DNA of 62,627 nucleotides, the filler included, from Gemmatimonadota bacterium (GTDB taxonomy: Bacteria > 4572-55 > J002), in assembly GCA_003697105.1 (NCBI GenBank). It is 4 parts of 4 records of this genome, joined end to end, with 100 filler letters (N's around TTAATTAATTAA, not from the genome) between each part and the next. Parts side by side here need not be neighbours in the genome. Positions count along the whole stretch, not along the records: positions 1 to 21,032 come from RFFQ01000106.1; 3 more parts are not named here. One strand, written 5' to 3'. The notes below the pieces were generated by a model, which did not search any database, was not told the DNA's origin, and saw only the letters and a program-made list of their open reading frames with translations. Position numbers and translations under genes: made by a program. Positions 3,069 to 21,031 of the stretch are shown here, one piece after another. Positions within the stretch are counted from its first letter, which is position 1. Each line of letters starts with the position of its first letter.

Positions 3069-4184
3069 ATGATACAATCGGATTTGTCCCGACCCGAAAT
3101 AGCCCGTTACAGCCGCCATTTACTGATCCCAGAAGTGGGGCTAGTAGGGCAACAACGGCTCAAAGCCGCGCGAGTACTGGTTGTCGGTGCCGGCGGACTT
3201 GGTTGCCCCGCCTTGCTCTATTTAGCCGCCGCCGGAGTGGGTACTTTGGGCATTGTTGATTTTGATGTTGTTGATGAAAGCAATCTGCAACGACAAGTAC
3301 TTTACACCGTAGCGGATGTGGGGCAACCCAAAGCAGAATGTGCGGCAAAACGGCTAACAGCATTGAATCCGTATGTCACCGTAGAGGTGCACCGGCTCTA
3401 TTTAACTTCTGAAAATGTACTTCCAATCCTGAAATCTTATGATCTGGTGGTTGATGGAACCGATAATTTCCCCACGCGCTATTTGCTGAATGATGCCGCC
3501 GTCCTGCTGGATAAACCACTTGTTTATGGTTCGATCTATCGCTTTGAAGGGCAAGTCTCTGTTTTTAATTATCAAAATTGCCCCAATTACCGGGATTTGT
3601 ACCCCGAACCACCACCACCGGAACTGGTTCCCAATTGCGCCGAAGGGGGTGTGCTGGGCGTCTTAGCCGGCATTATCGGCAGTATACAAGCCAACGAAGC
3701 AATAAAAATAATTACAGGAATTGGCGAACCGCTGGCAGGACGTCTCTTTTTATTCGATGCGCTCCGCTTTGAAAGCCAAATTATGCACTTACCCCGTCAT
3801 ACCCCACCCATCCACATTGAAACATTGATCGATTACAACCAGTTCTGCGGGGTGAAAAAAGAAGATGACATACCCGAGCTAACTGTTACGGAATTCAACC
3901 AGCTCCGCCACCGTAACACGGATTTTCAACTGATCGATGTTCGCCAGCCCTATGAACGGGAGATCGTTCATATTGGCGGTGAGTTGATCCCCCAAAATGA
4001 AATTTTTGACCGGCTTGAGGAACTTTCCCGCTCCAAAATGCTGATCATTTATTGTCGCAGTGGAAAACGAAGTGCAACCGTGGTTAAACAATTGCGATCA
4101 CTGGGGTTTGATAACGCGCGGAATTTGAAAGGGGGTGTTTTAGCCTACCGGGAAGAAATTGACCCAAGTTTAGCAAAATATTGA
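3069..4184 (+). CDS. moeB: Molybdopterin-synthase adenylyltransferase with C-terminal rhodanese domain (MoeB/MoeZ type)
   Basis: RYSRHLL, VGAGGLG, DESNLQRQ, DGTDNFPTRY, PNCAEGGVLG; rhodanese YCRSGKRS. Confidence 0.92.
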   Translation: MIQSDLSRPEIARYSRHLLIPEVGLVGQQRLKAARVLVVGAGGLGCPALLYLAAAGVGTLGIVDFDVVDESNLQRQVLYTVADVGQPKAECAAKRLTALNPYVTVEVHRLYLTSENVLPILKSYDLVVDGTDNFPTRYLLNDAAVLLDKPLVYGSIYRFEGQVSVFNYQNCPNYRDLYPEPPPPELVPNCAEGGVLGVLAGIIGSIQANEAIKIITGIGEPLAGRLFLFDALRFESQIMHLPRHTPPIHIETLIDYNQFCGVKKEDDIPELTVTEFNQLRHRNTDFQLIDVRQPYEREIVHIGGELIPQNEIFDRLEELSRSKMLIIYCRSGKRSATVVKQLRSLGFDNARNLKGGVLAYREEIDPSLAKY

Positions 4185-4235
4185 TTGAACACATTGATAT
4201 TTATACCGTTAGACTGGAAACGCATCAAGCACTTT

Positions 4236-4673
4236 TTAGGTCGGATTAGTATATTTCCAAGCCGCTTCCCCTTCGGCAAAATGTTCTTTTTTCCAGATCG
4301 GAACGTCTTTTTTAATCTCTTCTATGATAAAACGGCACGCTTCAAAGCTTTCCGCACGATGTGGGCTGGAGACGGCAATTACCACGCTGATGTCCGTGAG
4401 GTGGAGCAACCCCAACCGGTGGTGAATGGCAATTTTACCGAGATTCCACTGCTGAAATGCCCGTTCTGCCAAAGTTTGCAAGACCTTTTCCCCCATTTCG
4501 GCATAGCCGTGGTATTCCAACGCGGCAACCGCTTTACCCTCAAACTGATTGCGAACCGTGCCCACAAACAGGTCAACCGCCCCGCAGGTTTCATCGACCA
4601 CAAATTCATACGCCGCTGCTACACTAAGCGGTGCTTCCGTGATTTCAATCCATGTATTTTTTATCCTGATCAT
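4236..4673 (-). CDS. moaE: Molybdopterin synthase catalytic subunit
   Basis: GAVDLFVGTVR, LEYHGY, HRLGLL, SPHR, KKDVPIWKKE motifs. Confidence 0.95.
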   Translation of the reverse strand: MIRIKNTWIEITEAPLSVAAAYEFVVDETCGAVDLFVGTVRNQFEGKAVAALEYHGYAEMGEKVLQTLAERAFQQWNLGKIAIHHRLGLLHLTDISVVIAVSSPHRAESFEACRFIIEEIKKDVPIWKKEHFAEGEAAWKYTNPT

Positions 4674-4678
4674 CGATT

Positions 4679-4924: not shown

Positions 4925-6112
4925 TTATCGCTCCCATGGAAATCGTGTAATCTCAACAGTTTCGCCCGCTTCAAAACGAGTTTGTTCATCGACAAAGATA
5001 AAACCATCGGCTTCGGATAACGTGGTTAGCATATTGGAATTTTGCCGCCTTAACGGATAGACAAGACCATCCTTTAGTGCCACGCGGATAAATTCCGGTC
5101 TGCCTTTATTCTCAAGGGGGTGTGCCATTTTGGCGCGAAGAGCCGGCGGCGGGTTCTGTCCGGTTAAATGGGTGATGACCGGTTGAACGTACACTAAAAA
5201 GCAGATCAAGGCGGAAACCGGATTGCCCGGTAACCCAAAAAAGAGTTTACCCCCCTTTTTCGCCACAAAAAGCGGTTTGCCGGGCTTTTGTTTGACCTTC
5301 CAAAAGAGGGTTTCGTAACCACATTGTTGTGCGGCAGGCTTTACATGATCATGTTCCCCAACCGAAACCCCACCACAAAATAGAATGAGAGTAGCATCTT
5401 GTTCGGCTTGCTCAATGGTGTGGATTGTCTCCGTTAAGGTATCCGGGGCATGTCCGGTAAAGCAGACGGTTCCACCGGCGTTGGTCACTGCCGCTTTTAA
5501 TGTTAGCGAATTGGAATCGCGGATTTGCCCGGATGCTAACTCGATTGGCGCATCATAGGGAACAAGCTCTGTGCCGGTGGTGACAATGGCGATAGGTGGT
5601 AGTGAGAACACTGCTACCTGTGGAATGCCCAATGATGCTAACAACCCGATTCGCGCCGGATTGAGCCGTGAACCGCGTGAAATCAGGCGGTCGCCCGGCT
5701 GATATTCTTCCCCTTGAAATCGGATATTTTGGTACTGTTTTTTCACGGTATGGAGGGTCACCCGGTCTCCGGTCACCTGTGTATCTTCCACTGGTACAAC
5801 GCAATCCGCATCCGCTGGAACTTCTGCACCGGTATTGATGCGGATGGCTTGTTCCGGTTCAATCTTTCCCGTAAAAGGGCGTCCCGCCGCGCTTTCGCCA
5901 ATGATTTTTAGGGTAACGGGCACTTGTTGCACATCCGCCCAGCGGAGGGCGAATCCATCCATTGCGCTGTTGGTAAACCGGGGTGAAGGCTCGGTTGCCT
6001 CAATGTCCTCTGCCAAAATCCGGTTGAACGCATCCTCAAGTCGAATCTGTTCGATATTGGGTTTTGGTTGATGCTCTAAAATTATCTGTTTTGCCTCATT
6101 AACTGTGATCAT
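4925..6112 (-). CDS. moeA: Molybdopterin molybdotransferase
   Basis: SAMDGFA, RINTGA, TGTEL, IRDSN, GGVSVGEHD, QKPGKP, LPGNPVS motifs. Confidence 0.95.
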   Translation of the reverse strand: MITVNEAKQIILEHQPKPNIEQIRLEDAFNRILAEDIEATEPSPRFTNSAMDGFALRWADVQQVPVTLKIIGESAAGRPFTGKIEPEQAIRINTGAEVPADADCVVPVEDTQVTGDRVTLHTVKKQYQNIRFQGEEYQPGDRLISRGSRLNPARIGLLASLGIPQVAVFSLPPIAIVTTGTELVPYDAPIELASGQIRDSNSLTLKAAVTNAGGTVCFTGHAPDTLTETIHTIEQAEQDATLILFCGGVSVGEHDHVKPAAQQCGYETLFWKVKQKPGKPLFVAKKGGKLFFGLPGNPVSALICFLVYVQPVITHLTGQNPPPALRAKMAHPLENKGRPEFIRVALKDGLVYPLRRQNSNMLTTLSEADGFIFVDEQTRFEAGETVEITRFPWER

Positions 6113-6114: not shown

Positions 6115-6555
6115 TTCATCCCTCATCCTTCATTCCTCATCCTTCCGCCTTCATCCCTCATCCTTCATCCTTCCGCCTTCATCCCTCATCCTTCATCCTT
6201 CATCCCTCATCCTTCATCCTTCATCCCTCATCCCTCATCCTTCATCCCTCATCCTTCATTCCTCATCCTTCCGCCTTCATCCCTCATCCTTCATTCCTCA
6301 TCCTTCCGCCTTCATCCTTCCGCCTTCATCCTTCCGCCTTCATCCTTCCGCCTTCATCCTTCCGCCTTCATCCCTCATCCTTCATCCTTCATCCCTCATC
6401 CTTCATCCTTCATCCCTCATCCCTCATCCTTCATCCCTCATCCTTCCGCCTTCATCCTTCCGCCTTCATCCTTCCGCCTTCATCCCTCATCCTTCATCCT
6501 TCCGCCTTCATCCTTCCGCCTTCATCCTTCATCCTTCCGCCTTCATCCTTCATCC
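6115..6555. repeat. In-phase tandem array of 63 heptamers (TTCATCC/CTCATCC/TTCCGCC/TTCATTC)
   Basis: 441 bp = 63 x 7, read unit by unit; fills the moaC-mog/moeA intergenic space and contains the moaC-mog stop codon. Confidence 0.97.
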
Positions 6556-7467
6556 TTTCGAATGCCCTCCACCCCACATCATTGGGTAGGCATGTAACAA
6601 TCCCGGAAAAAGGGCGTGTAAACTTTCGGTTGCTCCGCGTGAGCTACCCGGCAGATTGATGATCAAACTTTGTCCCCGTAGCCCGCAAATTCCGCGGGAC
6701 AGCATGGCATAGGGGGTCCGGTCTGTACCGTGTTTGCGGATGGCTTCAGCAATGCCTGGCACTTCTTTATCGATCACGGGTTGCATCGCTTCTGGCGTGA
6801 CATCTTTGGGACCCAAACCGGTGCCCCCCGTGGTGAAAATCAATTGAATTTGTTCCTGATCGACCAGTTCGATCAGGCGTTGGCTGATTTTCGGGGCATC
6901 ATCGGGCAGGATTTCATAAAATTTGACCTCAACCGGCTGTTTTTCTAAAAATTCGCGGATAATCACCCCGGATTTATCCTGCCGTGTGCCGGCAAATGTG
7001 GAATCCGAAATGACCAGCACGGCGGCGCTGATTGGGGTATCAAACTGATCCGTGTACTGGCTTTTCCCCCCTTTTTTTTTCACGACCCGAATGTCACCAA
7101 AAGAGAGCTCGTCGGTGAGCGGTTTGAGCATATCAAACATATTAAGCAGAGCGGCGTTGATGGCGGTGATCGCCTCCATTTCCACGCCGGTTTTCCAGAC
7201 GGTTTCCACTTCAGCGGTGACGCGAATCTGGGTGTCATGGAGTTCGAACGTTAGGTCCACCCAATCGAGGGGGATAGGGTGGCAAAAGACAATCCAATCC
7301 GAGGTGCGTTTAGCCGCTTGAATCCCGGCGCTCCGGGCAGTGGCAAGGACATCTCCTTTGGGTACAGTGTTCGCCTTAACCCGCTCGATGACCGCGGCGG
7401 GGGCATTCAAGATGCCTTCTGCCCGCGCAAATCGGAGGGTGTTGAATTTATGACTGATGTTGATCAT
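6550..7467 (-). CDS. moaCB: Bifunctional MoaC / MogA-MoaB fusion
   Basis: Start reassigned to MINISHK (RBS GAAGGAG); MoaC motifs KGDVL, CHPIPL, TGVEMEA, KKKGGKS; Mog motifs QDKSG, TTGGTGLGPKDVTPEA, NLPGS. Confidence 0.92.
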   Translation of the reverse strand: MINISHKFNTLRFARAEGILNAPAAVIERVKANTVPKGDVLATARSAGIQAAKRTSDWIVFCHPIPLDWVDLTFELHDTQIRVTAEVETVWKTGVEMEAITAINAALLNMFDMLKPLTDELSFGDIRVVKKKGGKSQYTDQFDTPISAAVLVISDSTFAGTRQDKSGVIIREFLEKQPVEVKFYEILPDDAPKISQRLIELVDQEQIQLIFTTGGTGLGPKDVTPEAMQPVIDKEVPGIAEAIRKHGTDRTPYAMLSRGICGLRGQSLIINLPGSSRGATESLHALFPGLLHAYPMMWGGGHSKG

Positions 7468-7477
7468 CGGTGCTCCT

Positions 7478-8965
7478 TCACTTTGAATCATTTTGAATGA
7501 CGGTTTTGAGATATTCCAAATTTTGATTGAGTTGCCACCAGCCATTTTTGAACGTGGCATAATCTTGCCCGCACATCGCCGAGGCATACCGGATGGAATT
7601 GGCATAGAACAGCCAGAGTTCTACCCATTTTTTCTCTAAATGCTCATCAAACGGATTTTCCGGGTCGGCAAGTCCGGTGTCCCATGCCTGTTGCATGAGC
7701 TGAGTTGCCGCATAAACCATCTGGTCGGTTTCGGCGAGGGTGCTATCCATCTGGGCAAAATGACCGAGCGTCCAACTGGGACCATGGCAGGGCTGGCAAA
7801 CCCGTTTCATCGTATTTTTCCGTTCGGTCTGTTCTTCCGGCGTCAATAGGTATTCGGCGGCAATCTCGCCATCAAACGCGGTGGGGAGTGGCAGTCCGTC
7901 TTTATTGCGAATGTGGGTCGTATTGCCGGTTTTGGGTTGGGGATGGGAGTAAATCAATCCAAACAAGCGCACCCATAGCCGGGCACCAAAATCATGGGTA
8001 CGTTCGGCAATGACGGTTTCGCCGGAGGGGTCGGTCAGTAAACTATTATGGCAGGTGGCACACGTAGGAGATTGGAAGTCTTGCCCCACGCGCCACGGTA
8101 CATGGGTCCAGTTCCATTGATCCTGTTGGGAGAAAAAGATATTCCCATGTTTGCTCTCTTGATACACATCCCAAGCGGGGACATCCGGTTGAAGATGGCA
8201 CTCCGAGCAGGTGTAGGGCTTCCGGGCAATTTCAATAGAAAAACTGTGGCGGGGATGGCATGAGGTACATGCCCCCAAACTGCCGTCCGGATTTTTACGA
8301 CCCACACCCTGATTGGGCCAATTGGCTAAATGCGGTACGGTGATCTCGCCAAAATCGGTCTCAACATCCCGCATACCCAACACCATGACCTCCGAACCGT
8401 GGCAGGCAAAACAGGTTTCGTTTTCGGTGGTGCCAGAGGCGGCGGCATGTGTCCAACCGGTTTCATCGTAGCTCTGAACGCCAAGAGTGGTTTGTACCAA
8501 CGTATGGTACAGCGGATTTTCCCGAAGATTGGCAATCGCATGGGCCTTCTTGCTATTCGCATATTGGGTAGCTTCTTCCAGATGGCACGTTTGGCAATCT
8601 TTCGGTGAGACGATAATATTGATTTCGTAGCCAAAATGTTCAAAACTATCCGCATGATCGGCGGTATTTAAGCTGTGACATTCGTAACATCCGACGGCGG
8701 TTGACGCCAATTCCGGGGGAATGGCTTCATTGGAAATGCGCCGTTCTAATGCCGGTTTTTGGAGTGCCGCCGCCGGCGTGATTTGGGCATGACGGCTATT
8801 TTTCCAATCGTGAATGATACCGGAATTGATGGATTCATGGCACAGGATGCAGGCTTCGGTCTCTTCACTCAAGGGAACGTCTTCGGCGGCACTACTGATG
8901 ATGGGTAACCAGATCACACTCCATAACAGGATTCGGATAACAGAGGTGAGACAAAATGAACGCAT
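7478..8965 (-). CDS. Exported octaheme cytochrome c, hydroxylamine-oxidoreductase-like (epsilon-Hao/MCC family)
   Basis: Signal peptide; eight CxxCH motifs (CILCH, CYECH, CQTCH, CFACH, CTSCH, CSECH, CATCH, CQPCH); HAO-like segments PNQGVGR.NPDGSLGACTSCHPRHSFS and YQESKHG. Confidence 0.85.
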   Translation of the reverse strand: MRSFCLTSVIRILLWSVIWLPIISSAAEDVPLSEETEACILCHESINSGIIHDWKNSRHAQITPAAALQKPALERRISNEAIPPELASTAVGCYECHSLNTADHADSFEHFGYEINIIVSPKDCQTCHLEEATQYANSKKAHAIANLRENPLYHTLVQTTLGVQSYDETGWTHAAASGTTENETCFACHGSEVMVLGMRDVETDFGEITVPHLANWPNQGVGRKNPDGSLGACTSCHPRHSFSIEIARKPYTCSECHLQPDVPAWDVYQESKHGNIFFSQQDQWNWTHVPWRVGQDFQSPTCATCHNSLLTDPSGETVIAERTHDFGARLWVRLFGLIYSHPQPKTGNTTHIRNKDGLPLPTAFDGEIAAEYLLTPEEQTERKNTMKRVCQPCHGPSWTLGHFAQMDSTLAETDQMVYAATQLMQQAWDTGLADPENPFDEHLEKKWVELWLFYANSIRYASAMCGQDYATFKNGWWQLNQNLEYLKTVIQNDSK

Positions 8966-8995: not shown

Positions 8996-10171
8996 TTACA
9001 GTTCTGAAGAGGTTTGAAGATACCATTTTCCGTAAAGATACTGCCCCAATTGTAGCCCAAACCCTAGCAGTAGCGCAATGGTTAGATTTCGGGTGAAAAA
9101 TGACACCGACCCCACGAGAATCGCTACCAGCAGGTCATATTTCAGCTCTAATTTGTTAAGTAAGGTCATCAAGCGGTAACTATCGAGCAACAGCATTGCG
9201 CCTAAAACGGGGACAGGGATAAAAAACAAGAAGGTCGAAAATGGACTTAGGGCAACCAGCACAAAAAATGTCCCTAAGATGATGGTAGTTCCGCCGGTTT
9301 TGCCACCAAATTGAGCATGTGCCCCAATGCCGCCCGCTCCGTGGCAAATCGGGAATCCGCCCAGTAGTCCGATGAAAATATTGATGAGTCCAATGGAAAA
9401 GCCCAATTTAGTGGTCGTTACCCGCTGTGCTTGTTCTTTCCAGAATGCATGACAGGCATCACAGGCGGCAAACACCGCATTTCCTAAGGTCAGAGGCAAT
9501 TGGGGAATCATCAAAAAGATCAAGCTGTTTAAAAAGAAGTTCCATTGGGGGGTTTGGGGTTCCGTAAGCGACCCGTGGAGGGTACTCAAATCCAGATGAA
9601 CATTAAATAGGATCGCGATTAGAATACCGGTGGGAATAATCAAGAGAATAATCGGGAACCGCCGCCGAAATTGAACCCACCATAACAGGATGATCAATGT
9701 GGCGAAAATAATCGCATTGAGCATCAATGAAGACGTTAAAGACGATTTAAGAAAAAAACCATTTTCTACGGTCAGTTGAATCGCTTTTTGAGCGAGAATC
9801 AATCCCACACCGAGTTGAATTCCCCGCACAATTGCCGGGGTAAACCAGTTGCCTAACCAGCGAATCACACCGGTAGTGGATAATAGAATTAATAAAATAC
9901 CATAAAAAACAGCAGTGGTAGAGAGCGCACTGGCGGAATATCCGGTGGCGATAGCAATCACTGCCATGGCTTTTAAGGGTTGGATGGCAACCGGTACTTT
10001 ATAATACCAACCACTAAGGATGTAAGCGATACCCCACAAAAAAAAGATACGTTCCGGCGAAAACCCGTTGTACACAATTAAGGCAAACGCAAGGGGCAAT
10101 GTGGTGCCCAAGTCTCCTACAGCTCCTGACCATTCCGACAGTTTGAAGTGATTTTTAGGCGTCGGGTTCAT
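8996..10171 (-). CDS. MOT1-family putative molybdate/sulfate transporter
   Basis: SGAVGDLGTTLP, PVAIQPLKA, PQLPLTLGNA, PICHGAGGIGAHAQFGGKTG motifs of the MOT1 family; located within the Moco operon. Confidence 0.85.
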   Translation of the reverse strand: MNPTPKNHFKLSEWSGAVGDLGTTLPLAFALIVYNGFSPERIFFLWGIAYILSGWYYKVPVAIQPLKAMAVIAIATGYSASALSTTAVFYGILLILLSTTGVIRWLGNWFTPAIVRGIQLGVGLILAQKAIQLTVENGFFLKSSLTSSLMLNAIIFATLIILLWWVQFRRRFPIILLIIPTGILIAILFNVHLDLSTLHGSLTEPQTPQWNFFLNSLIFLMIPQLPLTLGNAVFAACDACHAFWKEQAQRVTTTKLGFSIGLINIFIGLLGGFPICHGAGGIGAHAQFGGKTGGTTIILGTFFVLVALSPFSTFLFFIPVPVLGAMLLLDSYRLMTLLNKLELKYDLLVAILVGSVSFFTRNLTIALLLGFGLQLGQYLYGKWYLQTSSEL

Positions 10172-10173: not shown

Positions 10174-11202
10174 TTATCCTCCAATGGCAGACATCGATTG
10201 AAATGTGCCGTTTTGCTTCAGTTTTTCGACCGTCTCAAACCCGTCTTTATTCCGTTGCCCGACACAGCGCCGGATGATGTGCTGGATGCCCGCGTCATCT
10301 GTCCCGTTGCGGAGTTCCTGCCGCAAATCGTACACACCCTGATCATACAGACACGTTTTGAGCATCCCTTTGGCGGTAATACGCAACCGGTTGCACGAGC
10401 CACAAAACAAGCGTGAAAAACCGGCAATAATGCCCACACACCCCTGATGCCCCTCAATTTTGTAATTGTGCGCCGTGGAATTGGGGTGATCGTCCACTTT
10501 TTTTAAAGATGGGTATTCCGTTTTCAGGAGGTTCAAAATGCGGTCACGGTTCCAAGGTGTCAAAGGCTTTGCGCCACCGTTGAAAGGCATTTCTTCGATG
10601 AATCGCACATCCACCGGATAATTTTTGGAGAGGTTGGCGACCGGAATAATATCCTCCGTGTTGACACCGTTCATTACGACCATGTTAATTTTGAGGGGGA
10701 TATTGTACGCCAAAATAGCATGAAAGGAAGCCATAACCCGTTCCAGCCCATCACGACGGGTTATGTGGCGAAATCGATCCCGATCGAGCGTATCAATGCT
10801 CAAATTGATGCCATTAATACCGATCCGGTGGAGCTCGGGTAAAAATTCCGCCGTAACCAAGCCATTTGTGGTCAGGTGGATTTGCTCAATGCCCGGAGTT
10901 TGGCGGATGTGCCACAGTAGATCGATCAATCCCTTGCGCACGAGCGGTTCGCCACCGGTAAGGCGCACTTTACGAATACCGAGCGGCGCCAACAGGCGAA
11001 TTAATCGCTTCATTTCGTCGATGGAAAGCATTTCATCCCGGTGGGATTTTGGAATGCCGCCGGCGGGCATACAATAAATACACCGCAGGTTGCACAATTC
11101 CGTAACTGCCAACCGGACATAGTCGATCCGGCGCTGGTAGTTATCGATCAAGGGGGGTGATGTTGGTGTGGCCGGTTTCTGAACCGGCATGGAGGCACTC
11201 AT
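10174..11202 (-). CDS. moaA: GTP 3',8-cyclase (radical SAM)
   Basis: CNLRCIYC, RLTGGEPL, FCGSCNRLR...C, terminal IGG; start at MSASMP after RBS AAAGGAG. Confidence 0.95.
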   Translation of the reverse strand: MSASMPVQKPATPTSPPLIDNYQRRIDYVRLAVTELCNLRCIYCMPAGGIPKSHRDEMLSIDEMKRLIRLLAPLGIRKVRLTGGEPLVRKGLIDLLWHIRQTPGIEQIHLTTNGLVTAEFLPELHRIGINGINLSIDTLDRDRFRHITRRDGLERVMASFHAILAYNIPLKINMVVMNGVNTEDIIPVANLSKNYPVDVRFIEEMPFNGGAKPLTPWNRDRILNLLKTEYPSLKKVDDHPNSTAHNYKIEGHQGCVGIIAGFSRLFCGSCNRLRITAKGMLKTCLYDQGVYDLRQELRNGTDDAGIQHIIRRCVGQRNKDGFETVEKLKQNGTFQSMSAIGG

Positions 11203-11206
11203 GGGG

Positions 11207-13493: not shown

Positions 13494-13541
13494 AAAAGAA
13501 AAGGAAGAATAAAGCAGAGCAGGCAACTTTATTCTTCCTTT
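13494..13541 (-). terminator. Intrinsic terminator-like hairpin after arrB
   Basis: 15-bp stem AAAGGAAGAATAAAG/CTTTATTCTTCCTTT followed by a T-rich tail on the minus strand. Confidence 0.65.
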
Positions 13542-13563: not shown

Positions 13564-14328
13564 CTAACCCTTTTTGAAACTTCGAATGTAGTGGACATTC
13601 GGTTCAGTGCCGGCTTCTTCCTTCAACCGGAATGATTTGTGTTCTGCCAAGGCTTTGCTGGGAGCACTGTTCGGGTCGTCCAAATCTCCGAAAATTCGGG
13701 CGCCGGAGGGGCAGACTTCCACACACGCGGGCATCAGATTTTGGGCGACACGATGGGCGCAAAAGATACACTTTTCCACGACACCGGGCCGGCGAACGCT
13801 CTCATAATCGGGATGGGTGTACTTGGTTTCATACGGGGGCGTTGCGCCGGCCTTTTCGGCGATTTCCGCCCCGGATGCGGTACAGCCAGGGATCATCTCG
13901 GTCTTATCCCGATACTCGGCGTGGGTCTCAACTTTTCGTTTGTTGAAACTAATGACACTATAACCGGTGTCGCTCTTGACAATATCAATGGCGCTATACG
14001 GGCAGGCTCGCTGGCATTTACGGCAACCAATGCAACGTTCATCATTATGCATGGTAATGCCATTTTCCGTTTTATACATCGCCTTATCTTTCACCGGACA
14101 GGCGGCAACACACGCGGCGTTACTGCAATGATTGCATAAGACCGGGATGGCGGTATAGCTTACATTCGGGAAGGTGCCTTCGGTCTTAAACATAAAGTCT
14201 GCCCAGTTGAAGGTTTGACCGTTCTTCACGTCACGGTTTGGGGTGTTGTTCTCTGTCTTGCAACCTAATGCGCAGGCGCCACAGCCCACACATTTTTGCA
14301 GGTCAATGACCATTCCTAATCTTGCCAT
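13564..14328 (-). CDS. arrB: Respiratory arsenate reductase Fe-S subunit
   Basis: MARLGMVIDLQKCVGCGACALGCKTENN; four Fe-S motifs of DmsB/PsrB type; adjacent to arrA. Confidence 0.9.
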   Translation of the reverse strand: MARLGMVIDLQKCVGCGACALGCKTENNTPNRDVKNGQTFNWADFMFKTEGTFPNVSYTAIPVLCNHCSNAACVAACPVKDKAMYKTENGITMHNDERCIGCRKCQRACPYSAIDIVKSDTGYSVISFNKRKVETHAEYRDKTEMIPGCTASGAEIAEKAGATPPYETKYTHPDYESVRRPGVVEKCIFCAHRVAQNLMPACVEVCPSGARIFGDLDDPNSAPSKALAEHKSFRLKEEAGTEPNVHYIRSFKKG

Positions 14329-14351: not shown

Positions 14352-16889
14352 TTAGACTTTTTCAATTTTCACACCGGTGAAGCCGCCGTTGCGTACATTA
14401 CTACCGCTTAGGCGTTCGGTATCATACGGCATCAGGTAATTGTTATTACCACCGCGCGGTTCAAAGGTGGCATAGTTTTTCGCTGCCACCCGGCCATACG
14501 CCCAGTGACCTTGACCGTAACATTTGGCGACTGTGCCGGGTTGGATGCCTTCCCACAGTTTCGCTTTCACTGTGATGCTCGCCACAACAGAGGTAAGTTT
14601 AACCATATCCCCATCGGCGATGCCCAACTTTTTGGCATCTGCTGGATTGATTTTGACGACATCTTCCCAGCTTTCATCACCCGGATCCACCTTCTTAAAC
14701 TCTTGATACCAAGGCGCGTTCTGGCTACGTCCTTCGCGGTTGAGGCGCGATTTATAATCCACAAAATCAAAGGGATATTCATTGCGATCACCCCAACGAT
14801 ATGGCGCTTCGTAATGTGGCACGAAAGCGTGTTCACCGCGGGCTTCATATTTACAGGTTTCCAGAATATCATCGATGGTGGTTTTGTGCTTTTCCGCGTG
14901 TTTCGACAACGCTTCTTTCAAGGTTTCGCTATAGAACTCAAATTTCTCGGTCTTGGTATGAAAATGACCCCAACGCTTTTTAAACGGATAGGCATCGGAG
15001 TTCCACAGACCGCGTTTACGGAAGTCTGCCCAACCATTGATTTTATCACCACCAATGTCCTTTTTACCATCCCAAATGGGTGCGGTTTGGTTCTTCAAGT
15101 TGTATTCGGTGAATTCCAGACCGTTGGTGGGTGCTTTGCCGGTTTCGGGGTCTTTGAATTCGTTGGTGAAGTAATCCAACAAGTTGGGGAAACCGCGTTC
15201 TTTGAGCTTTTCAGCAATCAACCACGGGATTTCGGTTTCGTCCATTTTCAAATCCCACAACGGCTTGACCACCGGTTGCACCAACGTACAGGTGGCGTAC
15301 TTATTCGCTTTCGTTTTTACATAGCCTAGCTTTTCATACTTGGTGATACAGGCAGGCAATACAATATCCGCATATTGGGTGAATTCCGAAGCATGGGTGG
15401 TAATGTGGGCTAAAAACGGGATTTTTTCCAATGCTTTTTCCCAGCGTTCGGCACCGGTGCAGGAGAAGACAAAGTTGTTCATATACCCGATGACTACTTT
15501 AACCGGATAGGGCTTATCGGCGAGAATGTTATCGGCGACTGCATTGGTGACCACACCGCCCCCGGATTTGCCTTTTTTCAGAGCTGGAAATTCTTTAGAG
15601 CCGCGCAAGTCAATCTTTTTCATGTGCGAATGCTCTTTGGCTAATTCATCCTGGTAGGCATCAAATTTCGGAATCTTATTGACTGGGATTTTAGCAGTTG
15701 CCAAGGCGCCACCTTCGGCATCCACGGAGCCCAGTAACCCATTCAACGCATGAATTGCCATGGCAGTATAGGCGCCGCGTACATGCATGGCGGCACCGGG
15801 TCCCAACCAAACCGCAACATTGGGCGCGGCTTTCGCCATATTCCGTGTAACGCGCAGAATTTGTTCTTTCGGGATACCCGTAATCTTTTCCGCCCACTCA
15901 GGGGTACGGTCTTTCAGTTCAATATTCCACCATTTGACCACGCCGTTGGTGTAAGTTTCCGTAAAGGTGGCTTCATCGACTTCTTGCCCAGCTTTGAACA
16001 GGTTTTTGCCATCGGTAAAATCACCGACAAATTCTTTGTTCCACAACCCTTCGGTCAAAATGATGTGAGCCATCGCGGTTGCTAATGCGCCATCTTCACC
16101 AGGTTTAATGGGTAACCACTCTTGAGCCTTGGCGGCGGAGGTTGTCAATTTGGGGTCAACAACCGCAATGGCACCCCGATCCAGCAAATCCCCAAACGCT
16201 CTAATGGTTGCTGGAATCATCCGATTACTACTCACCGGATCACAACCCCAAATGAGCAAATATTTGGTATTATCCAGATCATAATCTCGATAACCCCAGT
16301 AACCGGCGGTATAGTAAGAACCAAATTTTTCCGCTTCGGCACAGATGGCACTATGCGAAATGCCATTCGGTGAGCCAAATACTTTGGGAAGGGCGGCATA
16401 GATGGTATCCCGCATATAGGTATAGCGCCCTCGTAGAACGGCAAATGCCTCTGGCGTACCGGCTTTGCGCAATTCCATCATTTTATCGGCGATGGTATTC
16501 AACGCTTCATCCCACGTGATGGGCACAAATTGGGGGTCAACGCCACGCCCCTTCTTGGGATTGGTGCGTTTCATCGGCACTTTGACCCGGTCTGGATCGT
16601 ATAACAGTTGAAGGGACAGATGGCCCTTGGGGCACAAAAACCCTTGATTTTGCTTGGAAAGCTGATTGCCACGGACGCGAACCGCGCGCCCATCTTGTAC
16701 TAAAACTTCTGCCGGGCACCAAGTGGTACATCCTTGACATGTGGTCTTTTTCCACTCACCAGCGGCACTGCTGACACCCTTGCTAGGGCGTGCACTTTCG
16801 GCAAAAGCGTTCAATTGGGGACCACTCAATGCCGCCACGGCGCCTACCGTTGCACTGGCTTTTAAGAACGTACGTCTTTTCATTTTCAT
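14352..16889 (-). CDS. arrA: Respiratory arsenate reductase catalytic molybdopterin subunit
   Basis: Tat signal KRRTFLK; CQGCTTWC...C Fe-S motif; ArrA-diagnostic RGRY (not ArxA GRGW); SHSAICAEAEK Mo-ligand segment; SRLNREGRS and GQGHWAYGR motifs. Confidence 0.93.
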   Translation of the reverse strand: MKMKRRTFLKASATVGAVAALSGPQLNAFAESARPSKGVSSAAGEWKKTTCQGCTTWCPAEVLVQDGRAVRVRGNQLSKQNQGFLCPKGHLSLQLLYDPDRVKVPMKRTNPKKGRGVDPQFVPITWDEALNTIADKMMELRKAGTPEAFAVLRGRYTYMRDTIYAALPKVFGSPNGISHSAICAEAEKFGSYYTAGYWGYRDYDLDNTKYLLIWGCDPVSSNRMIPATIRAFGDLLDRGAIAVVDPKLTTSAAKAQEWLPIKPGEDGALATAMAHIILTEGLWNKEFVGDFTDGKNLFKAGQEVDEATFTETYTNGVVKWWNIELKDRTPEWAEKITGIPKEQILRVTRNMAKAAPNVAVWLGPGAAMHVRGAYTAMAIHALNGLLGSVDAEGGALATAKIPVNKIPKFDAYQDELAKEHSHMKKIDLRGSKEFPALKKGKSGGGVVTNAVADNILADKPYPVKVVIGYMNNFVFSCTGAERWEKALEKIPFLAHITTHASEFTQYADIVLPACITKYEKLGYVKTKANKYATCTLVQPVVKPLWDLKMDETEIPWLIAEKLKERGFPNLLDYFTNEFKDPETGKAPTNGLEFTEYNLKNQTAPIWDGKKDIGGDKINGWADFRKRGLWNSDAYPFKKRWGHFHTKTEKFEFYSETLKEALSKHAEKHKTTIDDILETCKYEARGEHAFVPHYEAPYRWGDRNEYPFDFVDYKSRLNREGRSQNAPWYQEFKKVDPGDESWEDVVKINPADAKKLGIADGDMVKLTSVVASITVKAKLWEGIQPGTVAKCYGQGHWAYGRVAAKNYATFEPRGGNNNYLMPYDTERLSGSNVRNGGFTGVKIEKV

Positions 16890-16997: not shown

Positions 16998-18002
16998 CTA
17001 GAATTTCCATTCAAAGGTTAATTTACCAACGAGATCGGCATCCAGATCACCGGCATTCATGTAATACCAAATATTGGGGATCACATGGACTTTTTTATGA
17101 GGATGGTAATCAAAGGCGGCGATGATCAGGTTGGTTTCATTATCATCCGTATCGGCATCGGGTTCATACATATCAAACCGGAGGATTGCCGTACCGGTTT
17201 CGGTGACATCATAACGCCCAAAAACGGAGAGGGCGTTCATGGTTAGATCATCGGGATCACCTTCTTTCGTAAAGATGTAATATTCACCACCAACTGCCAA
17301 TTTATCTTGAGTGTAGCCGGCAAAGCCTTTCATGGTGATGTTTTTAAATTCGGAATCACGATTTTCGATATCGAAATAGCCTTCAATAATAAAGTTTGAA
17401 GGGTGTGCCGAGAGTGACAGTTGAAACTTTTTGTACATATTGCCCTCAGGATGGGAATAATGAGAGCCATTGGCGACCATAACATGATAGCCAATCATCT
17501 TTTCGGCAAAGGTGCCTTTTAAGGCAAGTCCGGCGTCCGCGGAGGTGGCACTGACAGATGCGCCAGTAACATCCTTAAAATTATCCCAAACGGTTTTGGC
17601 TAAACCCCGATAACCCCATACCTTTTCGGAATTTGCCCAGGTCGGGGTGCCGGAAATACCGATGTACAGTTTGGAATTCGGGATTAAGTTTTTCCACTGC
17701 AAAAATGCGTGCTTCACGAACGGGCGAAGTTTGTCATCGGCTTTCCGATCCGCATCCGTGCGAAAACGTACAGAGAACGTATCATCAATCTTCTTATTGA
17801 TCGTCAAATACGTGCGGCGGAATTTAAACGCATTTTCCTGACCATCTGCCCGAGGACCGGTGTTGGAAATATCATGGTAATAATCGAAATAGGCTTTCCC
17901 TTTGATTTCCAGACCATCCAACGATCCCGCATAACTAACGGTACTTGCCACAAATAAAACAGCAATGGATAAAACCAACATGAAAAAACGGGTGGACTTC
18001 AT
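16998..18002 (-). CDS. Outer-membrane beta-barrel porin, OprO/OprP-like (putative anion porin)
   Basis: Signal peptide; FKFRRTYLTI and FVKHAFLQW basic beta-strands; terminal aromatic FEWKF. Confidence 0.65.
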   Translation of the reverse strand: MKSTRFFMLVLSIAVLFVASTVSYAGSLDGLEIKGKAYFDYYHDISNTGPRADGQENAFKFRRTYLTINKKIDDTFSVRFRTDADRKADDKLRPFVKHAFLQWKNLIPNSKLYIGISGTPTWANSEKVWGYRGLAKTVWDNFKDVTGASVSATSADAGLALKGTFAEKMIGYHVMVANGSHYSHPEGNMYKKFQLSLSAHPSNFIIEGYFDIENRDSEFKNITMKGFAGYTQDKLAVGGEYYIFTKEGDPDDLTMNALSVFGRYDVTETGTAILRFDMYEPDADTDDNETNLIIAAFDYHPHKKVHVIPNIWYYMNAGDLDADLVGKLTFEWKF

Positions 18003-18047: not shown

Positions 18048-18254
18048 TTATTGTTTGAGGTGCTTTGCCTCATTAACAGAATCCAAAACATCTTTAAGTT
18101 GCACGGCATCTTCAATCTCCCTCATTTCTTTTTTGAAGATGCGAACCCCTTTGCCCATCCCTCGTGCGAGTTCAGGAAGTTTTTTTCCACCAAAAAGCAA
18201 TAAAATAATGCCTGCAATTAACGAAATTTCACCAATGCCGAAACCACCAAACAT
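18048..18254 (-). CDS. tatA: Twin-arginine translocase TatA/E subunit
   Basis: GIGEI...LLLFGGKKLPELARGMGKGVRIFKK signature. Confidence 0.93.
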   Translation of the reverse strand: MFGGFGIGEISLIAGIILLLFGGKKLPELARGMGKGVRIFKKEMREIEDAVQLKDVLDSVNEAKHLKQ

Positions 18255-18315: not shown

Positions 18316-18332
18316 CGCAAAAGTGACGCCAA
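18316..18332 (-). promoter_or_regulatory. Sigma54 (-24/-12) promoter of the tatA-porin-arr operon
   Basis: Minus strand TTGGCGTCACTTTTGCG = GG-N10-GC with TGGC and TTGC; about 60 bp upstream of tatA, just downstream of a sigma54 activator gene. Confidence 0.75.
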
Positions 18333-18394: not shown

Positions 18395-18430
18395 GATGAA
18401 ATTTCACCCATCGAGCGATGAAATTTCATC
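18395..18430. promoter_or_regulatory. Tandem palindromic upstream activator sites (GATGAAATTTCATC)
   Basis: GATGAAATTTCACC at 18395-18408 and perfect palindrome GATGAAATTTCATC at 18417-18430, 22-bp period. Confidence 0.6.
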
Positions 18431-19769
18431 TAATATTGAATTTAGCGAGTTTACTTTTGAGGGTCGGTAAGGGGATACCGAGTAATTCCGCCATGCGGGT
18501 TTTACTACCGCCGGTACGGTGGCTGGCTTCGACTAAAATATCATGCTCGACTTGGTACAAATACTCCGGTAACGGTTGGTTGCCCCATTGGTATTGGGCT
18601 GATTTTTCGCTAAATTCGCGGATATTTGCCGGCAGATAACATTTGTCGATATACCCATCTTTACTGAGCAAGACCAGCCGTTCTATCACGTGTTCTAGCT
18701 CTCGAATATTGCCGTCCCAATCATAGGCTAAAAAGTAATCCATCACTTCCGGAGCTAATACCATAGAATGGTCGGGGTTGTATTTGTTCAGGAAGTAGTT
18801 TACTAACAGCGGAATATCTTCTTTTCGTTCTTTTAGGGAGGGTAAATAGATGGGCATGACATTAAGGCGATAAAACAGGTCTCGCCGGAAAGTACCGGCT
18901 TCTATTGCCGCTCGTAAGTCCTTTTTACTCGCCGCAATAATGCGAACATCCACTTTTAAGGTAGATTCACCGCCAACCCGCTCAAACATTCCGGTTTCAA
19001 TCACTTGCAGAAGTTTCACTTGTGTTTCCAAGGGAATGTCATCGACTTCATCCAAAAAGAGGGTACCCCCATCGGCAAGTTCAAATCGTCCCTTTTTCTG
19101 TTTAATCGCGCCGGTAAACGATCCCTTTTCGTGCCCGAATAGCTCAGATTCCAGTAATTCGCGGGAAAGGGCGGCACAACTGATGGTGACAAAGGGCTTG
19201 TTTGCGCGTGGGCTGTTATAATGAATTGTTTGGGCGATCAACCCTTTACCGGTGCCGGTATCTCCGGTAATCAACACGGAAATATCCGACTGGCTGACCA
19301 CGTGGAGCAGTTCAAAAACTTGGCGCATGGGCTTGGAGTCACCCACAATATTGTCAAATTGATACTGTTGGGAGAGTTGCTTTTTCAGGCTTTCATTTTC
19401 ACGGCGGAGGCGGATGGTTTCCGTGGTATTGTGGATGATGTGATGGAGATGCTCCATCGAGAAAGGCTTAATCAGGTAATCTAATGCGCCTTTTTTGAGG
19501 GTTTGAATGGCGGACTCTATGGTCGCATTGGCGGTGATCAGGATGAATTGAGTTGTGGGCTGTTCTTGTTGGATGAAATCGAGTACATCGGCGCCACTCA
19601 CATTGCCCATCACCAAATCACAAATGACCAGATCAATGGGACGTTTTTTTAGCAGCTCAATTGCCGCTTCGCCAGATGCCGCTGTTTGTACCTGATAACC
19701 CATTTCCTCCAGTTCATCGGCTAAGGCAAGCCGGACACTTTTTTCATCATCTACGACTAAGATATTCAT
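18426..19769 (-). CDS. Sigma54-dependent response regulator (NtrC/AtoC family; ArrR/AioR-like)
   Basis: Receiver domain ILVVDDE...DLVM; AAA+ motifs GDTGTGKG, ELFGHEKGSFTGA, GGTLFLDEV, FRRDLFYRLNV, GNIRELEH; C-terminal HTH. Confidence 0.92.
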   Translation of the reverse strand: MNILVVDDEKSVRLALADELEEMGYQVQTAASGEAAIELLKKRPIDLVICDLVMGNVSGADVLDFIQQEQPTTQFILITANATIESAIQTLKKGALDYLIKPFSMEHLHHIIHNTTETIRLRRENESLKKQLSQQYQFDNIVGDSKPMRQVFELLHVVSQSDISVLITGDTGTGKGLIAQTIHYNSPRANKPFVTISCAALSRELLESELFGHEKGSFTGAIKQKKGRFELADGGTLFLDEVDDIPLETQVKLLQVIETGMFERVGGESTLKVDVRIIAASKKDLRAAIEAGTFRRDLFYRLNVMPIYLPSLKERKEDIPLLVNYFLNKYNPDHSMVLAPEVMDYFLAYDWDGNIRELEHVIERLVLLSKDGYIDKCYLPANIREFSEKSAQYQWGNQPLPEYLYQVEHDILVEASHRTGGSKTRMAELLGIPLPTLKSKLAKFNIR

Positions 19770-21031
19770 GACCCACCCTCTAATGGCAATAAAATTGTGA
19801 CGGTTGTGCCTTTTTTTTCTAGGGAATCAACAAAAATTGTGCCACCGTGTGTCGTAATGATATTGTAGCTCACATACATCCCTAAACCGGTGCCTTTGTT
19901 CCCTTTAGTGGTGTAAAATGGGTCAAAAATATGGTTTAGGACCTCGCGACTCATGCCTTTTCCGTTATCCTGAAGTTGTAATTTTGCTTGTTGTGGGGTG
20001 TGATGTAACTCAATGCAGATTTCACCTGATTTGCCCATCGCATCAATGGAGTTCAGTATACAATTAACAATCACTTGCGCCAATTGACCTTTCGCACCCA
20101 TAAAATAGACCGGTGTTTCGGGTAACCGGGTGGTAAGTTGAATCTGATTTTTTTCCAGACGGTACTGAACCAACCGTAAGGCGAAGGTGATTGCCCCCCG
20201 CAGATCAAATCGTTCATGTTTAAAAGCGTTCTGGTGGGCGTAGTCTAACAAGTTGTTAACAATATCTTTGATGTGATTTGCCGATTCCGCAATCAAGTGG
20301 ACGTATTCGGTTACTTTTTCATCCAGTTGATCGGGGTGTTTTAACAACCGGTAGGCACACAATTCGATTCCAGCTACCGGATTATTGATCTCATGCGCGA
20401 CACCGGAGGCTAAAATACCGATACTGGCCAGTTTTTCGGTCTCCACGATTTTGGCTTGGGTGATTTTGTCGGCTTGATCTTGGGCGGTAATTCGTTCCAT
20501 CATTGCCAAAACACCCTCTTTAAGGAGCATCATTTCATCGTTAAAATAGATATTGATTTCGGGTAACGGTTTTCCTGGATCGAAGTTATTCACGCCTTCC
20601 AATATTTGGTAGACCGGTTGGGTGACGAAATACGCCGCGCCAATCGCACCTGCAATACCAAATATCAGGAAAAGAAAAATCATCCCACTTAAAATAAAAG
20701 TGATCTTTTTTTCTTTATTCAAAATAGCGGTATCATTTAGCCCTAAAGTGACATAGCCCAATTTACCACCAAACAACGGGTTGGTGTACTGTCGAATAAG
20801 GATGTGGCGGTCTTTATCGGTATATAATTGTGGATTTGGTGTGGTATTCGGGGACCTTAGAAGAGTGGGGATTCGGTTTTTCTCAAATGTGTGCCCAATA
20901 ATAGCGTTGTGTTTATCATAAACGACAATATGTAAGATGTCGGGATCGGCTTCTTTTAGTCTAGTGACAAAGCGGTTGATCGTGACATAATCTTCGGTAA
21001 TGACTGCATTTACCACATTTTCAGTTAAAAT
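19766..21031 (-). CDS. Sensor histidine kinase (ArrS/AioS-like), 5'-truncated at the contig end
   Basis: TM + HAMP; EKLASIGILASGVAHEINNP H-box; N, G1 (DNGKG), F (FDPFYTTK) and G2 boxes; frame stays open to the gap. Confidence 0.9.
   Translation of the reverse strand: MLTENVVNAVITEDYVTINRFVTRLKEADPDILHIVVYDKHNAIIGHTFEKNRIPTLLRSPNTTPNPQLYTDKDRHILIRQYTNPLFGGKLGYVTLGLNDTAILNKEKKITFILSGMIFLFLIFGIAGAIGAAYFVTQPVYQILEGVNNFDPGKPLPEINIYFNDEMMLLKEGVLAMMERITAQDQADKITQAKIVETEKLASIGILASGVAHEINNPVAGIELCAYRLLKHPDQLDEKVTEYVHLIAESANHIKDIVNNLLDYAHQNAFKHERFDLRGAITFALRLVQYRLEKNQIQLTTRLPETPVYFMGAKGQLAQVIVNCILNSIDAMGKSGEICIELHHTPQQAKLQLQDNGKGMSREVLNHIFDPFYTTKGNKGTGLGMYVSYNIITTHGGTIFVDSLEKKGTTVTILLPLEGGS

Follow-up and report, generated by a model that had tools for sequence, protein, structure and literature searches.

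The respiratory arsenate reductase Arr and its relatives provide several described systems with which the locus reported here can be compared. Canonical ArrA proteins are described as carrying the motif RGRY at positions 163–166 of the Shewanella sp. ANA-3 enzyme and further active-site residues at 189, 193, 198 and 210, with XGRGWG as the ArxA motif, and an association of Arr with menaquinone is reported (PMC13685797). In Shewanella, Arr uses a separate quinol dehydrogenase, CymA (PMC2500031). Control by ArrXSR systems has already been described, with ArrX binding arsenate and AioX arsenite; regulators of the AtoC type, combined with RpoN promoters, are known from Aio and Arx as well as from the epsilonproteobacterial ArrR (PMC5908839). 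Here we analysed a window of 62,627 bases, that is, contigs strung together with runs of N between them, from a metagenome-assembled genome (MAG) deposited as Gemmatimonadota bacterium (G000; GCA_003697105.1). Window positions 1–21,032 are one whole contig, C177 (RFFQ01000106.1), and the limits of the finding are therefore assembly limits. C177 very probably holds two adjacent, separately controlled units on the minus strand, an arsenate-respiration operon and a riboswitch-led molybdenum cofactor (Moco) unit, in the chromosome of an anaerobe affiliated with the Fibrobacterota–Chlorobiota–Bacteroidota (FCB) group.

The molybdoenzyme encoded on C177 is, judged by its sequence, an ArrA-type arsenate respiratory reductase and not an ArxA or PsrA protein. 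It matches the NCBIfam model NF041714 over the full length with 1118 bits, against 299 for the next family, PhsA, and 218 for DmsA, and its residues 41–845 align with the ArrA structure from Shewanella sp. ANA-3 (PDB 6cz7; 982 bits, E = 1.5e-294). A twin-arginine translocation (Tat) signal, RRTFLK, is located at residues 5–10, the domains TAT_signal and Molybdop_Fe4S4 (1.1e-12) both match, and the protein carries the motif SHSAICAEAEK. The active-site residues RGRY 153–156, H179, S180, C183, K188 and Y200 keep a constant offset of 10 to the ANA-3 positions 163–166, 189, 190, 193, 198 and 210. As ArxA comparator we used the plasmid locus pORIO3 of Cereibacter azotoformans ORIO, encoding a PhnD-like protein, a kinase, a regulator, a 4Fe-4S protein, the molybdoenzyme, a further 4Fe-4S protein, NrfD and TorD, an order that we take to be arxXSR-arxB2ABCD. 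Its ArxA is 34% identical to the C177 ArrA and has YGRGWG at the place of LRGRY. In a FastTree phylogeny of 85 rows, 83 ArrA-like rows including the C177 protein form one clade (Shimodaira–Hasegawa-like support 99) with ArxA and a Psr-like paralogue outside it, a result of modest strength, as ArxA and the outgroup are each represented by one sequence. ArrB matches NF041715, by far its best family, over the full length, and the menaquinone gene menA is present on another contig.

The arsenate-respiration unit appears to run tatA-porin-arrA-arrB-(hairpin)-arrD-polyferredoxin-mobA. Its tatA is a paralogue of a second tatA on C69 (44% identity), and a tatA adjoining arrA is also reported for Methanoperedenaceae (PMC13685797). 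The porin belongs to a family with 1210 representatives at E <= 0.001, and 29 of 65 aligned members match Porin_O_P. No solved relative of it was found by sequence, a profile search of the PDB returning only a weak OmpT match (E 0.007), and it weakly resembles ExtI, a porin of a selenite/tellurite operon (E 2.5e-4). A role as entry channel for arsenate would be a reasonable reading. The polyferredoxin, with neither a transmembrane segment nor a signal peptide in its sequence, is colinear with the 4Fe-4S protein preceding arxA in Cereibacter ORIO (25% identity, E 2e-14). For the arr-linked polyferredoxin, neither a name nor a role was found in the literature, and Atlas gave only generic polyferredoxin clusters; our guess is a maturation or redox-poising role. 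MobA stays below the cut-offs of its NCBIfam models. The hairpin between arrB and arrD is possibly a partial terminator or an RNA-stability element.

Upstream of this unit, the regulator ArrR, with AtoC as its best NCBIfam model, and the kinase ArrS are encoded. The arrS reading frame remains open up to where the contig stops, and its product aligns with the kinase of a related locus (L058) only from residue 59 of the latter, so that about 58 N-terminal residues are missing. The only close homologue of an ArrX-type binding protein in the genome is encoded at the very end of contig C161 (Phosphonate-bd 6.3e-49), with ArrX as its best solved relative (3.2e-37), ahead of AioX (1e-24), and behind it the open reading frame (ORF) of a kinase N-terminus with a transmembrane helix (TM1) runs off the contig. 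We infer that the end of C161 continues, after a gap of about 15–25 codons, into the right end of C177. The operon would thus be controlled by an ArrX-ArrS-ArrR(sigma54) system, of which arrX is located on C161 and arrS is split by the contig break.

For the sigma54 promoter in front of tatA, the support is moderate and it is treated here as a candidate. Sites of the form GG-N10-GC with at most 3 mismatches number 5 on the 21-kb minus strand, and one of them is located in the spacer between arrR and tatA, where about 0.04 would be expected by chance; with 2 mismatches to the consensus TGGCAC-N5-TTGCW, the count equals chance (61 vs 62). Among the 73 related loci with enough sequence upstream of arrA, 19 have, no farther than 390 nucleotides (nt) from arrA, a -24/-12 site that shows two mismatches or fewer (3.0 expected). 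Two tandem palindromes near the promoter candidate are candidates for the ArrR binding site.

The second unit starts at a riboswitch, which opens the separate operon moaA-MOT1-octaheme-moaC/B; it is followed by an array of heptamers, by moeA-moaD-moaE and by the convergent moeB. The aptamer match spans positions 1–135 of the RF01055 model with the P3 stem deleted in the alignment, and its 3' end (11194) lies about 40 nt before model position 1 of MoaA (11151). The ORF-list start of moaA is too far upstream, as the protein model begins at residues 46–47; similarly, the model match of the MoaC-MoaB fusion starts at residue 47, its listed start is too far upstream, and the true start is probably near 7479. 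P3-less aptamers are described as linked to molybdopterin-synthesis genes and to use of the tungsten cofactor (Tuco), and the E. coli Moco riboswitch as an OFF switch repressed by Moco (PMC2408646). Because the P3-less class is tied to both, the molybdenum and the tungsten cofactor are alike possible as ligand. A tblastn search of the genome with all cluster proteins found each Moco gene only on C177, and family searches confirmed this for MoeA_N, MoaA (the sole match above the TIGR02666 cut-off) and MOT1. MoeB stays below the cut-offs of the NCBIfam MoeZ and MoeB models (481 and 463 bits). Beside nfo and moeB, window positions 123–1935 hold two half-genes of the YeeE/YedE 'sulphur transport' type and a rhodanese-like gene, which could supply sulfur for molybdopterin synthesis.

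The permease between moaA and the octaheme gene is the only MOT1-family gene of the genome, in which no ModA was found above cut-off and no WtpA or TupA was recognised; the SBP_bac_11 matches are PhnS2-like and the PBP_like_2 match is PstS. No solved relative was found by sequence. Its place in a riboswitch-led moa cassette, together with the lack of a recognised ModA in the genome, suggests that the permease imports molybdate or tungstate. Metagenomic loci with MOT1 homologues contained a Moco gene in 32 of 80 cases and in 18 of the 21 closest, mostly in the order moaA-MOT1-moaC/B-moeA. Scans of 20 and of 17 MOT1 loci found a co-directional Moco riboswitch upstream in 5 and 1 of them, respectively (6/37), and the arr locus L066 has one as well. 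A survey from 2018 lists MOT1 for eukaryotes only and counts 278 Mo-using bacteria without a known molybdate transporter (PMC6147048), and bacterial PF16983 proteins have been assigned to molybdate by homology (PMC5840216). In a limited literature search, no experimental work on a bacterial MOT1-family member was found. A wider proposition, which in our judgement may equally prove right or wrong, is that this SulP/MOT1-family permease is the real Mo/W importer of bacteria without ModABC, WtpABC and TupABC, and that it belongs to a conserved, often riboswitch-controlled moaA-MOT1-moaC/B-moeA cassette. This cassette would have joined arr operons several times, forming a laterally exchangeable unit for arsenate respiration and its cofactor, with a phosphate-porin-like channel admitting arsenate.

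The octaheme cytochrome encoded in the second unit matches PDB 4qo5 with E = 1e-138, a structure described as the octaheme nitrite reductase IhOCC (PMC9250108). It is probably a nitrite or hydroxylamine reductase rather than a subunit of Arr, as judged by homology. Nitrite reduction is the likelier role because the genome encodes NapA and because a paralogue of the octaheme protein (31% identity; L099:1559-2935) is located on C118 beside the gene of a NapC/NirT-type cytochrome (about 10410–10670 of that contig). These two C118 genes look like a quinol-linked module for nitrite or hydroxylamine reduction. The octaheme protein was also considered as a dedicated electron donor of Arr; this is unlikely, given its IhOCC-like nature, its place behind the riboswitch and its occurrence near arr in only 1 of 80 loci. 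In the two metagenomic cassette loci L103 and L107, a distant octaheme homologue (24% identity) is encoded just upstream of the riboswitch, about 2.8 kb upstream of MOT1, and multihaem cytochromes may recur near the moaA-MOT1-moaC/B-moeA cassette. As the cluster has no ArrC, a quinol dehydrogenase encoded elsewhere must serve ArrAB, in the manner of CymA in Shewanella. All five NrfD genes and both NapC/NirT-type genes of the genome are located outside C177, and our guess for the path to ArrAB is one of the NapC/NirT-type cytochromes encoded on C114 or C118. The positions of all features are compiled in the table.

Features of contig C177 in the direction of minus-strand transcription, with window positions, strand and supporting matches
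Feature	Position	Strand	Basis
arrS, sensor histidine kinase, 5' end cut by contig end	19766..21032 (ORF 19766-21016)	-	HisKA, HATPase_c
arrR, AtoC/NtrC-type sigma54-dependent response regulator	18426..19769	-	Response_reg, Sigma54_activat (1.3e-69), AAA_lid_14, HTH_8
Two tandem palindromes GATGAAATTTCATC, GGTGAAATTTCATC, candidate ArrR site	18395..18430	-	Read from sequence; ~65-115 nt upstream of the -24 element
Candidate sigma54 -24/-12 promoter TGGCGTCACTTTTGCG	18316..18331	-	In 171-nt arrR-tatA spacer; 3 mismatches to TGGCAC-N5-TTGCW
tatA paralogue, first gene of the arr transcription unit	18048..18254	-	68 amino acids (aa), TatA-like
Outer-membrane porin, distantly Porin_O_P-like	16998..18002	-	Signal peptide; Porin_O_P marginal
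arrA, catalytic Mo-bis(pyranopterin guanine dinucleotide) (Mo-bisPGD) subunit with Tat signal	14352..16889	-	NF041714, PDB 6cz7
arrB, four-cluster iron-sulfur subunit	13564..14328	-	NF041715 best match
16-bp hairpin and U-rich tract between arrB and arrD	13500..13541	-	z-score -3.7; 0/200 shuffles fold as well
arrD, TorD/NarJ-type maturation chaperone	12859..13455	-	Nitrate_red_del 7.1e-35
Cytoplasmic polyferredoxin, ArxB2-like	11842..12849	-	4 CxxCxxC motifs, 22 Cys
mobA, Moco guanylyltransferase (bis(molybdopterin guanine dinucleotide), bis-MGD, form), last gene of the arr unit	11283..11900	-	NTP_transf_3 3.8e-33
Moco/Tuco riboswitch aptamer, P3-lacking type	11194..11322	-	RF01055 69.9 bits, gathering score 36, E 2.7e-15
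moaA, GTP 3',8-cyclase	10174..11151 (ORF list 10174-11286)	-	TIGR02666 328 bits, cut-off 284
MOT1/SulP-family permease	8996..10171	-	PF16983, two matches, 4.6e-45, 153 bits in all, cut-off 30
IhOCC-type octaheme cytochrome c (hydroxylamine oxidoreductase, HAO, clade), periplasmic	7478..8965	-	8 CxxCH, N-terminal signal-like segment
moaC-moaB/mog fusion	6550..7605	-	NCBIfam bifunctional MoaC/MoaB 372 bits, cut-off 285
Heptamer tandem array (units TTCATCC, CTCATCC, TTCCGCC)	6115..6557	.	443 nt; fills the moaC-moaB/moeA spacer exactly
moeA, molybdopterin molybdotransferase	4925..6112	-	MoeA_N, MoCF_biosynth, MoeA_C; only MoeA_N match of the genome
moaD, molybdopterin synthase	4679-4924	-	ThiS family 7.1e-15; TIGR01682 73.6 bits, cut-off 66.15
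moaE, molybdopterin synthase	4236-4673	-	MoaE 1.9e-39
moeB/moeZ, MoaD adenylyltransferase with rhodanese domain	3054..4184	+	ThiF 3.1e-82, Rhodanese; convergent; single copy
Short dispersed repeat, ~105-125 nt	1..107	.	Left end of C177; marks assembly break, outside the arr system

Relatives of this ArrA are widespread and are encoded by 411 species genomes of many phyla. In a collection of species genomes, 411 of 466 candidate stretches contained one, the candidates examined yielding 5141 proteins at E <= 1e-10, and MAGs labelled Bacteroidota, Ignavibacteriota and Kapabacteria were among the carriers. The best 80 related loci, which span at least 13 phylum labels, were compared for gene content; the counts are lower bounds, many contigs being short. 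ArrB was encoded in 76 and arrD, directly downstream as here, in 73 of them, followed in frequency by the kinase (41), the sigma54 regulator (36), the ArrX-type binding protein (35) and the polyferredoxin right after arrD (31). Less frequent were moaA (12), ArrC (9, with one NrfD query), moeA (8), mobA (6), MOT1 (5), a porin just upstream of arrA (4), tatA and moaC/B (2 each) and the octaheme gene (1). Each accessory gene of C177 recurs in other arr loci, and the system is of a known kind, found here in a host that is new for it; a novel distribution or gene order, as implied by the preliminary description, is not supported. In L028, L058 and L066, a PhnD-like binding protein, a kinase and a sigma54 regulator are encoded upstream of arrA. 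The kinase of L028 (L028:3408-5471), the foreign arr locus with the greatest synteny, is fused C-terminally to a MobA-like nucleotidyl (NTP-transferase) domain, so that arsenate sensing and Moco guanylylation would be combined in one polypeptide. In two unrelated loci, arrD is followed by a small gene of the CMD/AhpD-like type (L066:14441-14758 and L075:7135-7503), which in L066 is placed between the riboswitch and MOT1.

Regarding the origin of the locus, the C177 ArrA is 78–80% identical to metagenomic proteins, one of them labelled Calditrichia, while RpoB of the same genome reaches at most 65–67% with its relatives. In the tree, ArrA groups with those metagenomic rows next to Spirochaetota, Nitrospirota, SAR324 and Desulfobulbia, apart from the clade of Bacteroidota, Kapabacteria and Ignavibacteriota. 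MoaA, MoeA and MoaC are 36, 31 and 41% identical to the proteins of the phylum relative G001, as opposed to 55, 50 and 68% to those of a metagenomic cassette (L101). In G001, the genes of these three proteins are on separate contigs; in G002, which is 93% complete, neither moaA nor moaC was found. As arrA and the Moco genes are closer to foreign sequences than RpoB and the genes of the phylum relative would suggest, lateral acquisition of arrA and of the Moco cassette is likely.

The host appears to be an anaerobe of a sparsely sampled, FCB-affiliated lineage, in agreement with the preliminary description. Its phylum is represented by three species genomes in the collection, of which only G000 has ArrA; G001 and G002 lack it, and MOT1 was not found there with the C177 permease as query. 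The best named relatives of RpoB belong to Eisenbacteria, Gemmatimonadota and Krumholzibacteriota, with 65–67% identity over two thirds of the protein. RpoB itself (L091:1486-5634, on C166) is 1382 aa long and contains CarboxypepD_reg-like domains (PF13715, PF13620), which are unusual as an insertion in this RNA polymerase subunit. Most relatives are without these domains, have about 1250–1290 aa and cover only 66% of the protein; one protein of 1408 aa (65% identity) shares PF13620.

The genome G000 comprises 4.18 Mb in 199 contigs and is rated 96.85% complete, with an estimated contamination of 0.66%. The guanine-cytosine (GC) content of C177 is 48.0%, compared to 48.5% for the genome, and the tetranucleotide correlation between the two is r = 0.97 (rank 42 by distance among 50 contigs of similar size), although this likeness is partly circular as evidence because bins are built on composition. 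Copies of the first ~105 nt of C177, 94–99% identical, are present on 11 further contigs of this bin; eight of these have the copy at their extreme end and three have it inside. An insertion sequence (IS) element was considered at this end and rejected, as the repeat does not extend into a longer IS; the repeat is probably an element fragmenting the assembly, similar to a miniature inverted-repeat transposable element (MITE) or a repetitive extragenic palindromic (REP) element. Its copy on C170 adjoins a helicase-like gene, presumably a type I restriction subunit. The heptamer array (period 14/21, Tandem Repeats Finder score 550; purine-rich GGATGAA on the coding strand) has family copies on C61 (20959-21235), C38 (45667-45927), C39 (1-88), C3 (14258-14339) and C199 (3407-3488). 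Independent Logan contigs from two runs of one study break at the array, where the summed depth rises from ~25 to 500–1100. At window positions 18046–18258, Logan contigs of both runs end on either side of tatA and the depth dips, which may reflect strain variation or a filter. The two shared kinds of repeat, the complementation of the cut kinase by C161, the composition, and a NapA and Psr-like enzyme that would otherwise be without a cofactor pathway support the membership of C177 in this bin.

Three other explanations have to be weighed against the reading as two separately controlled units. The preliminary description had proposed a self-contained arsenate-respiration island with all accessory functions for a host lacking molybdoenzymes, and its gene list was recovered by ORF, Pfam and NCBIfam searches with every gene at or near the place given, although the Moco riboswitch and the heptamer array were missing from it. 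Its identification of ArrA by RGRY, SHSAICAEAEK and the Tat signal agrees with the tree, the regulator with its full domain set and the presence of rpoN accord with the proposed sigma54 control, and the complete Moco pathway and the MOT1-type permease are indeed on the contig. That all Moco steps, a candidate Mo importer, TatA, the porin and the regulators are encoded within 18 kb, mostly on one strand, would suit a self-sufficient transferable island, as would the recurrence of arr with the moaA-MOT1-moaC/B-moeA cassette in 5 of 80 arr loci with unrelated labels (in L028 in nearly the same order), the nearness of ArrA and the cassette to foreign sequences, and the missing moaA and moaC in G002. 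We nevertheless regard such an island as very improbable. Self-containment is contradicted by the genes located outside C177, namely tatC and rpoN (both C10), menA, acr3 (C34), arrX (C161) and all those for NrfD or NapC/NirT quinol dehydrogenases. Nor does the host lack molybdoenzymes: it has NapA (1008 bits vs a cut-off of 904), whose partners are encoded on C93, and a Psr/Phs-like enzyme, encoded on C28 along with partners resembling NrfC/NrfD. Since C177 encodes the only Moco pathway of the genome, its Moco unit also serves these two enzymes, and it forms a unit of its own under riboswitch control. Among the ORFs searched with Pfam and NCBIfam, on C177 and along the final 20 kb of C161, none carried an integrase or transposase domain, an Rfam scan of C177 gave no tRNA match, the flanks on C177 and C161 are housekeeping genes, and GC content and tetranucleotide usage of C177 are within the range of the bin. 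What remains of the island idea is the package of arr with the moaA-MOT1-moaC/B-moeA cassette, which recurs and of which both parts look laterally acquired, without being self-sufficient.

A mis-binned contig is even less probable. In this case C177 would stem from a co-sampled organism, for example of Nitrospirota, Desulfobacterota or Calditrichia, and the host of the rare phylum would not respire arsenate; the labels nearest to ArrA (Calditrichia, SAR324, Nitrospirota, Spirochaetota, Desulfobulbia), the lack of ArrA and MOT1 in G001 and G002 and the partial circularity of the composition evidence would fit this. The repeat of the left end on 11 other contigs and the heptamer family on five argue for the bin, as do the similar GC content, r and the low contamination given above, and C161, otherwise a housekeeping contig, ends with precisely the arrX and the kinase N-terminus that C177 lacks. 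Removing C177 would leave a bin with NapA and Psr but without any Moco pathway. In line with the preliminary description, we thus keep the contig in the bin. The least probable of the three alternatives is a different role of the enzyme, either as an Arx-like arsenite oxidase running in reverse or as a reductase of selenate, thiosulfate, polysulfide or similar compounds. Arr and Arx are reported to be bidirectional in vitro (PMC13685797), and the ArrA score below the equivalog cut-off and the weak likeness of the porin to ExtI could point to another substrate. RGRY instead of GRGWG, the 34% identity to ArxA as opposed to 982 bits with the solved ArrA, the scores of PhsA and DmsA far below that of the ArrA model, the menaquinone gene, and a linked sensor nearest to ArrX, described as arsenate-binding, and not to the arsenite-binding AioX (PMC5908839) argue against it.

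A number of observations weigh against the reading preferred here, that of an Arr operon beside a riboswitch-led Moco unit. The NCBIfam equivalog cut-offs are missed by ArrA (1118 vs 1600 bits) and ArrB (275.7 vs 450 bits), although such a cut-off is an annotation threshold and not a biochemical criterion, and the ArrA cut-off was reached in none of the 41 genomes examined. The ArrA tree is of the modest strength mentioned, tetranucleotide likeness is partly circular, and the porin exceeds the cut-off of Porin_O_P (PF07396) only marginally (21.3 vs 20.9 bits). The exact sigma54 consensus has no match in the window, and the promoter candidate of C177 itself deviates at three positions. No read or contig bridges C161 and C177, the Logan contigs reaching only position 20944 and thus being silent on this join, and the automatic alignment of the short kinase peptide of C161 was poor. 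The cluster is without a quinol dehydrogenase gene, and the octaheme gene, placed behind a riboswitch of a kind that is an OFF switch in E. coli, would fit poorly with a dedicated Arr donor. Caution is also needed regarding the two halves of C177: as both Logan assemblies break at the 443-nt simple repeat, their join rests on the original assembly.

On the reading as two units, we propose the following course of arsenate respiration. ArrX would sense arsenate in the periplasm and signal to the kinase ArrS, which would phosphorylate ArrR; ArrR would then bind the two palindromes and open the sigma54 promoter before tatA. ArrA would receive its bis-MGD cofactor with the help of ArrD and perhaps also of the ArxB2-like polyferredoxin, and would be exported together with ArrB by the Tat system, for which an additional TatA is encoded here and TatC elsewhere. 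In the periplasm, ArrAB would reduce As(V) entering through the phosphate-porin-like channel, with electrons from menaquinol delivered by the quinol dehydrogenase encoded elsewhere, possibly the NapC/NirT-type protein of C114 or C118, and the arsenite formed would be exported by Acr3. The second unit, with the only candidate Mo/W importer of the genome, would feed NapA and the Psr-like enzyme in addition to ArrA.

With these results, arsenate respiration joins the metabolism inferred for a phylum of which only three species genomes are known. It was probably gained through lateral transfer, involving arr and likely also the cofactor cassette. The idea of a plug-and-play island is to be corrected: nitrate and sulfur-compound reductases draw on the same Moco genes, and the cluster has thereby become a part of core metabolism. 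The riboswitch-linked, moa-embedded MOT1-type permease, in a genome in which no ModA was recognised, is a concrete candidate for molybdate uptake, and the ArxB2-like polyferredoxin and the porin, at the frequencies given above, are recurrent accessories of Arr.

Compared with ArrAB of Shewanella ANA-3, the C177 enzyme shares the Tat-exported Mo-bisPGD subunit, the four-cluster ArrB, the absence of ArrC and an active site in register. The C177 operon differs by its additional TatA, porin, ArrD, polyferredoxin and MobA, by control through ArrXSR and its sigma54 activator and by scores below the equivalog cut-off, and no CymA orthologue is assigned here. With ArrXSR of Chrysiogenes arsenatis, AioXSR and ArxXSR, the locus has in common that a periplasmic binding protein of the PhnD-like kind is encoded together with kinase and regulator upstream of the oxidoreductase; in this case, arrX and the start of arrS are on another contig, joined by inference. 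While ArrR of Chrysiogenes and Firmicutes is described as CitB-like and without an AAA+ domain (PMC5908839), ArrR of C177 is of the AtoC type. The arx cluster of Cereibacter ORIO resembles the C177 locus in its XSR module, its TorD-type chaperone and a homologous polyferredoxin of ~340 aa, but has an NrfD anchor, and its polyferredoxin gene precedes the A gene instead of following the D gene.

Among the arr loci compared, L028 is similar in its order ArrX-kinase-sigma54 regulator-porin-arrABD-moaA-MOT1-moaC/B-moeA, yet its ArrA is only 58% identical to that of C177 and belongs to another ArrA subclade. L058 shares ArrX-kinase-regulator-tatA-porin-arrC-arrABD, and L066 has arrABD followed by a Moco riboswitch and MOT1-moaA. 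None of the seven loci L028, L035, L039, L044, L058, L066 and L075 combines all elements of C177, and the octaheme gene between MOT1 and moaC/B is specific to C177 among the compared loci. The aioBA arsenic islands of Herminiimonas, Thiomonas and Rhizobium sp. NT-26 are described as similarly combining an oxidoreductase with Moco and oxyanion-transport genes (PMC3673622). They encode an arsenite oxidase, and some are plasmid-borne or flanked by mobility genes, whereas C177 encodes Arr and has no mobility gene in the ORFs scanned. Like the riboswitch of E. coli moaABCDE (RF01055), the aptamer of C177 is located directly upstream of moaA, but it is of the type without P3, and like eukaryotic MOT1, the permease matches the Pfam family MFS_MOT1, which was built around the high-affinity molybdate transporters of plants and algae.

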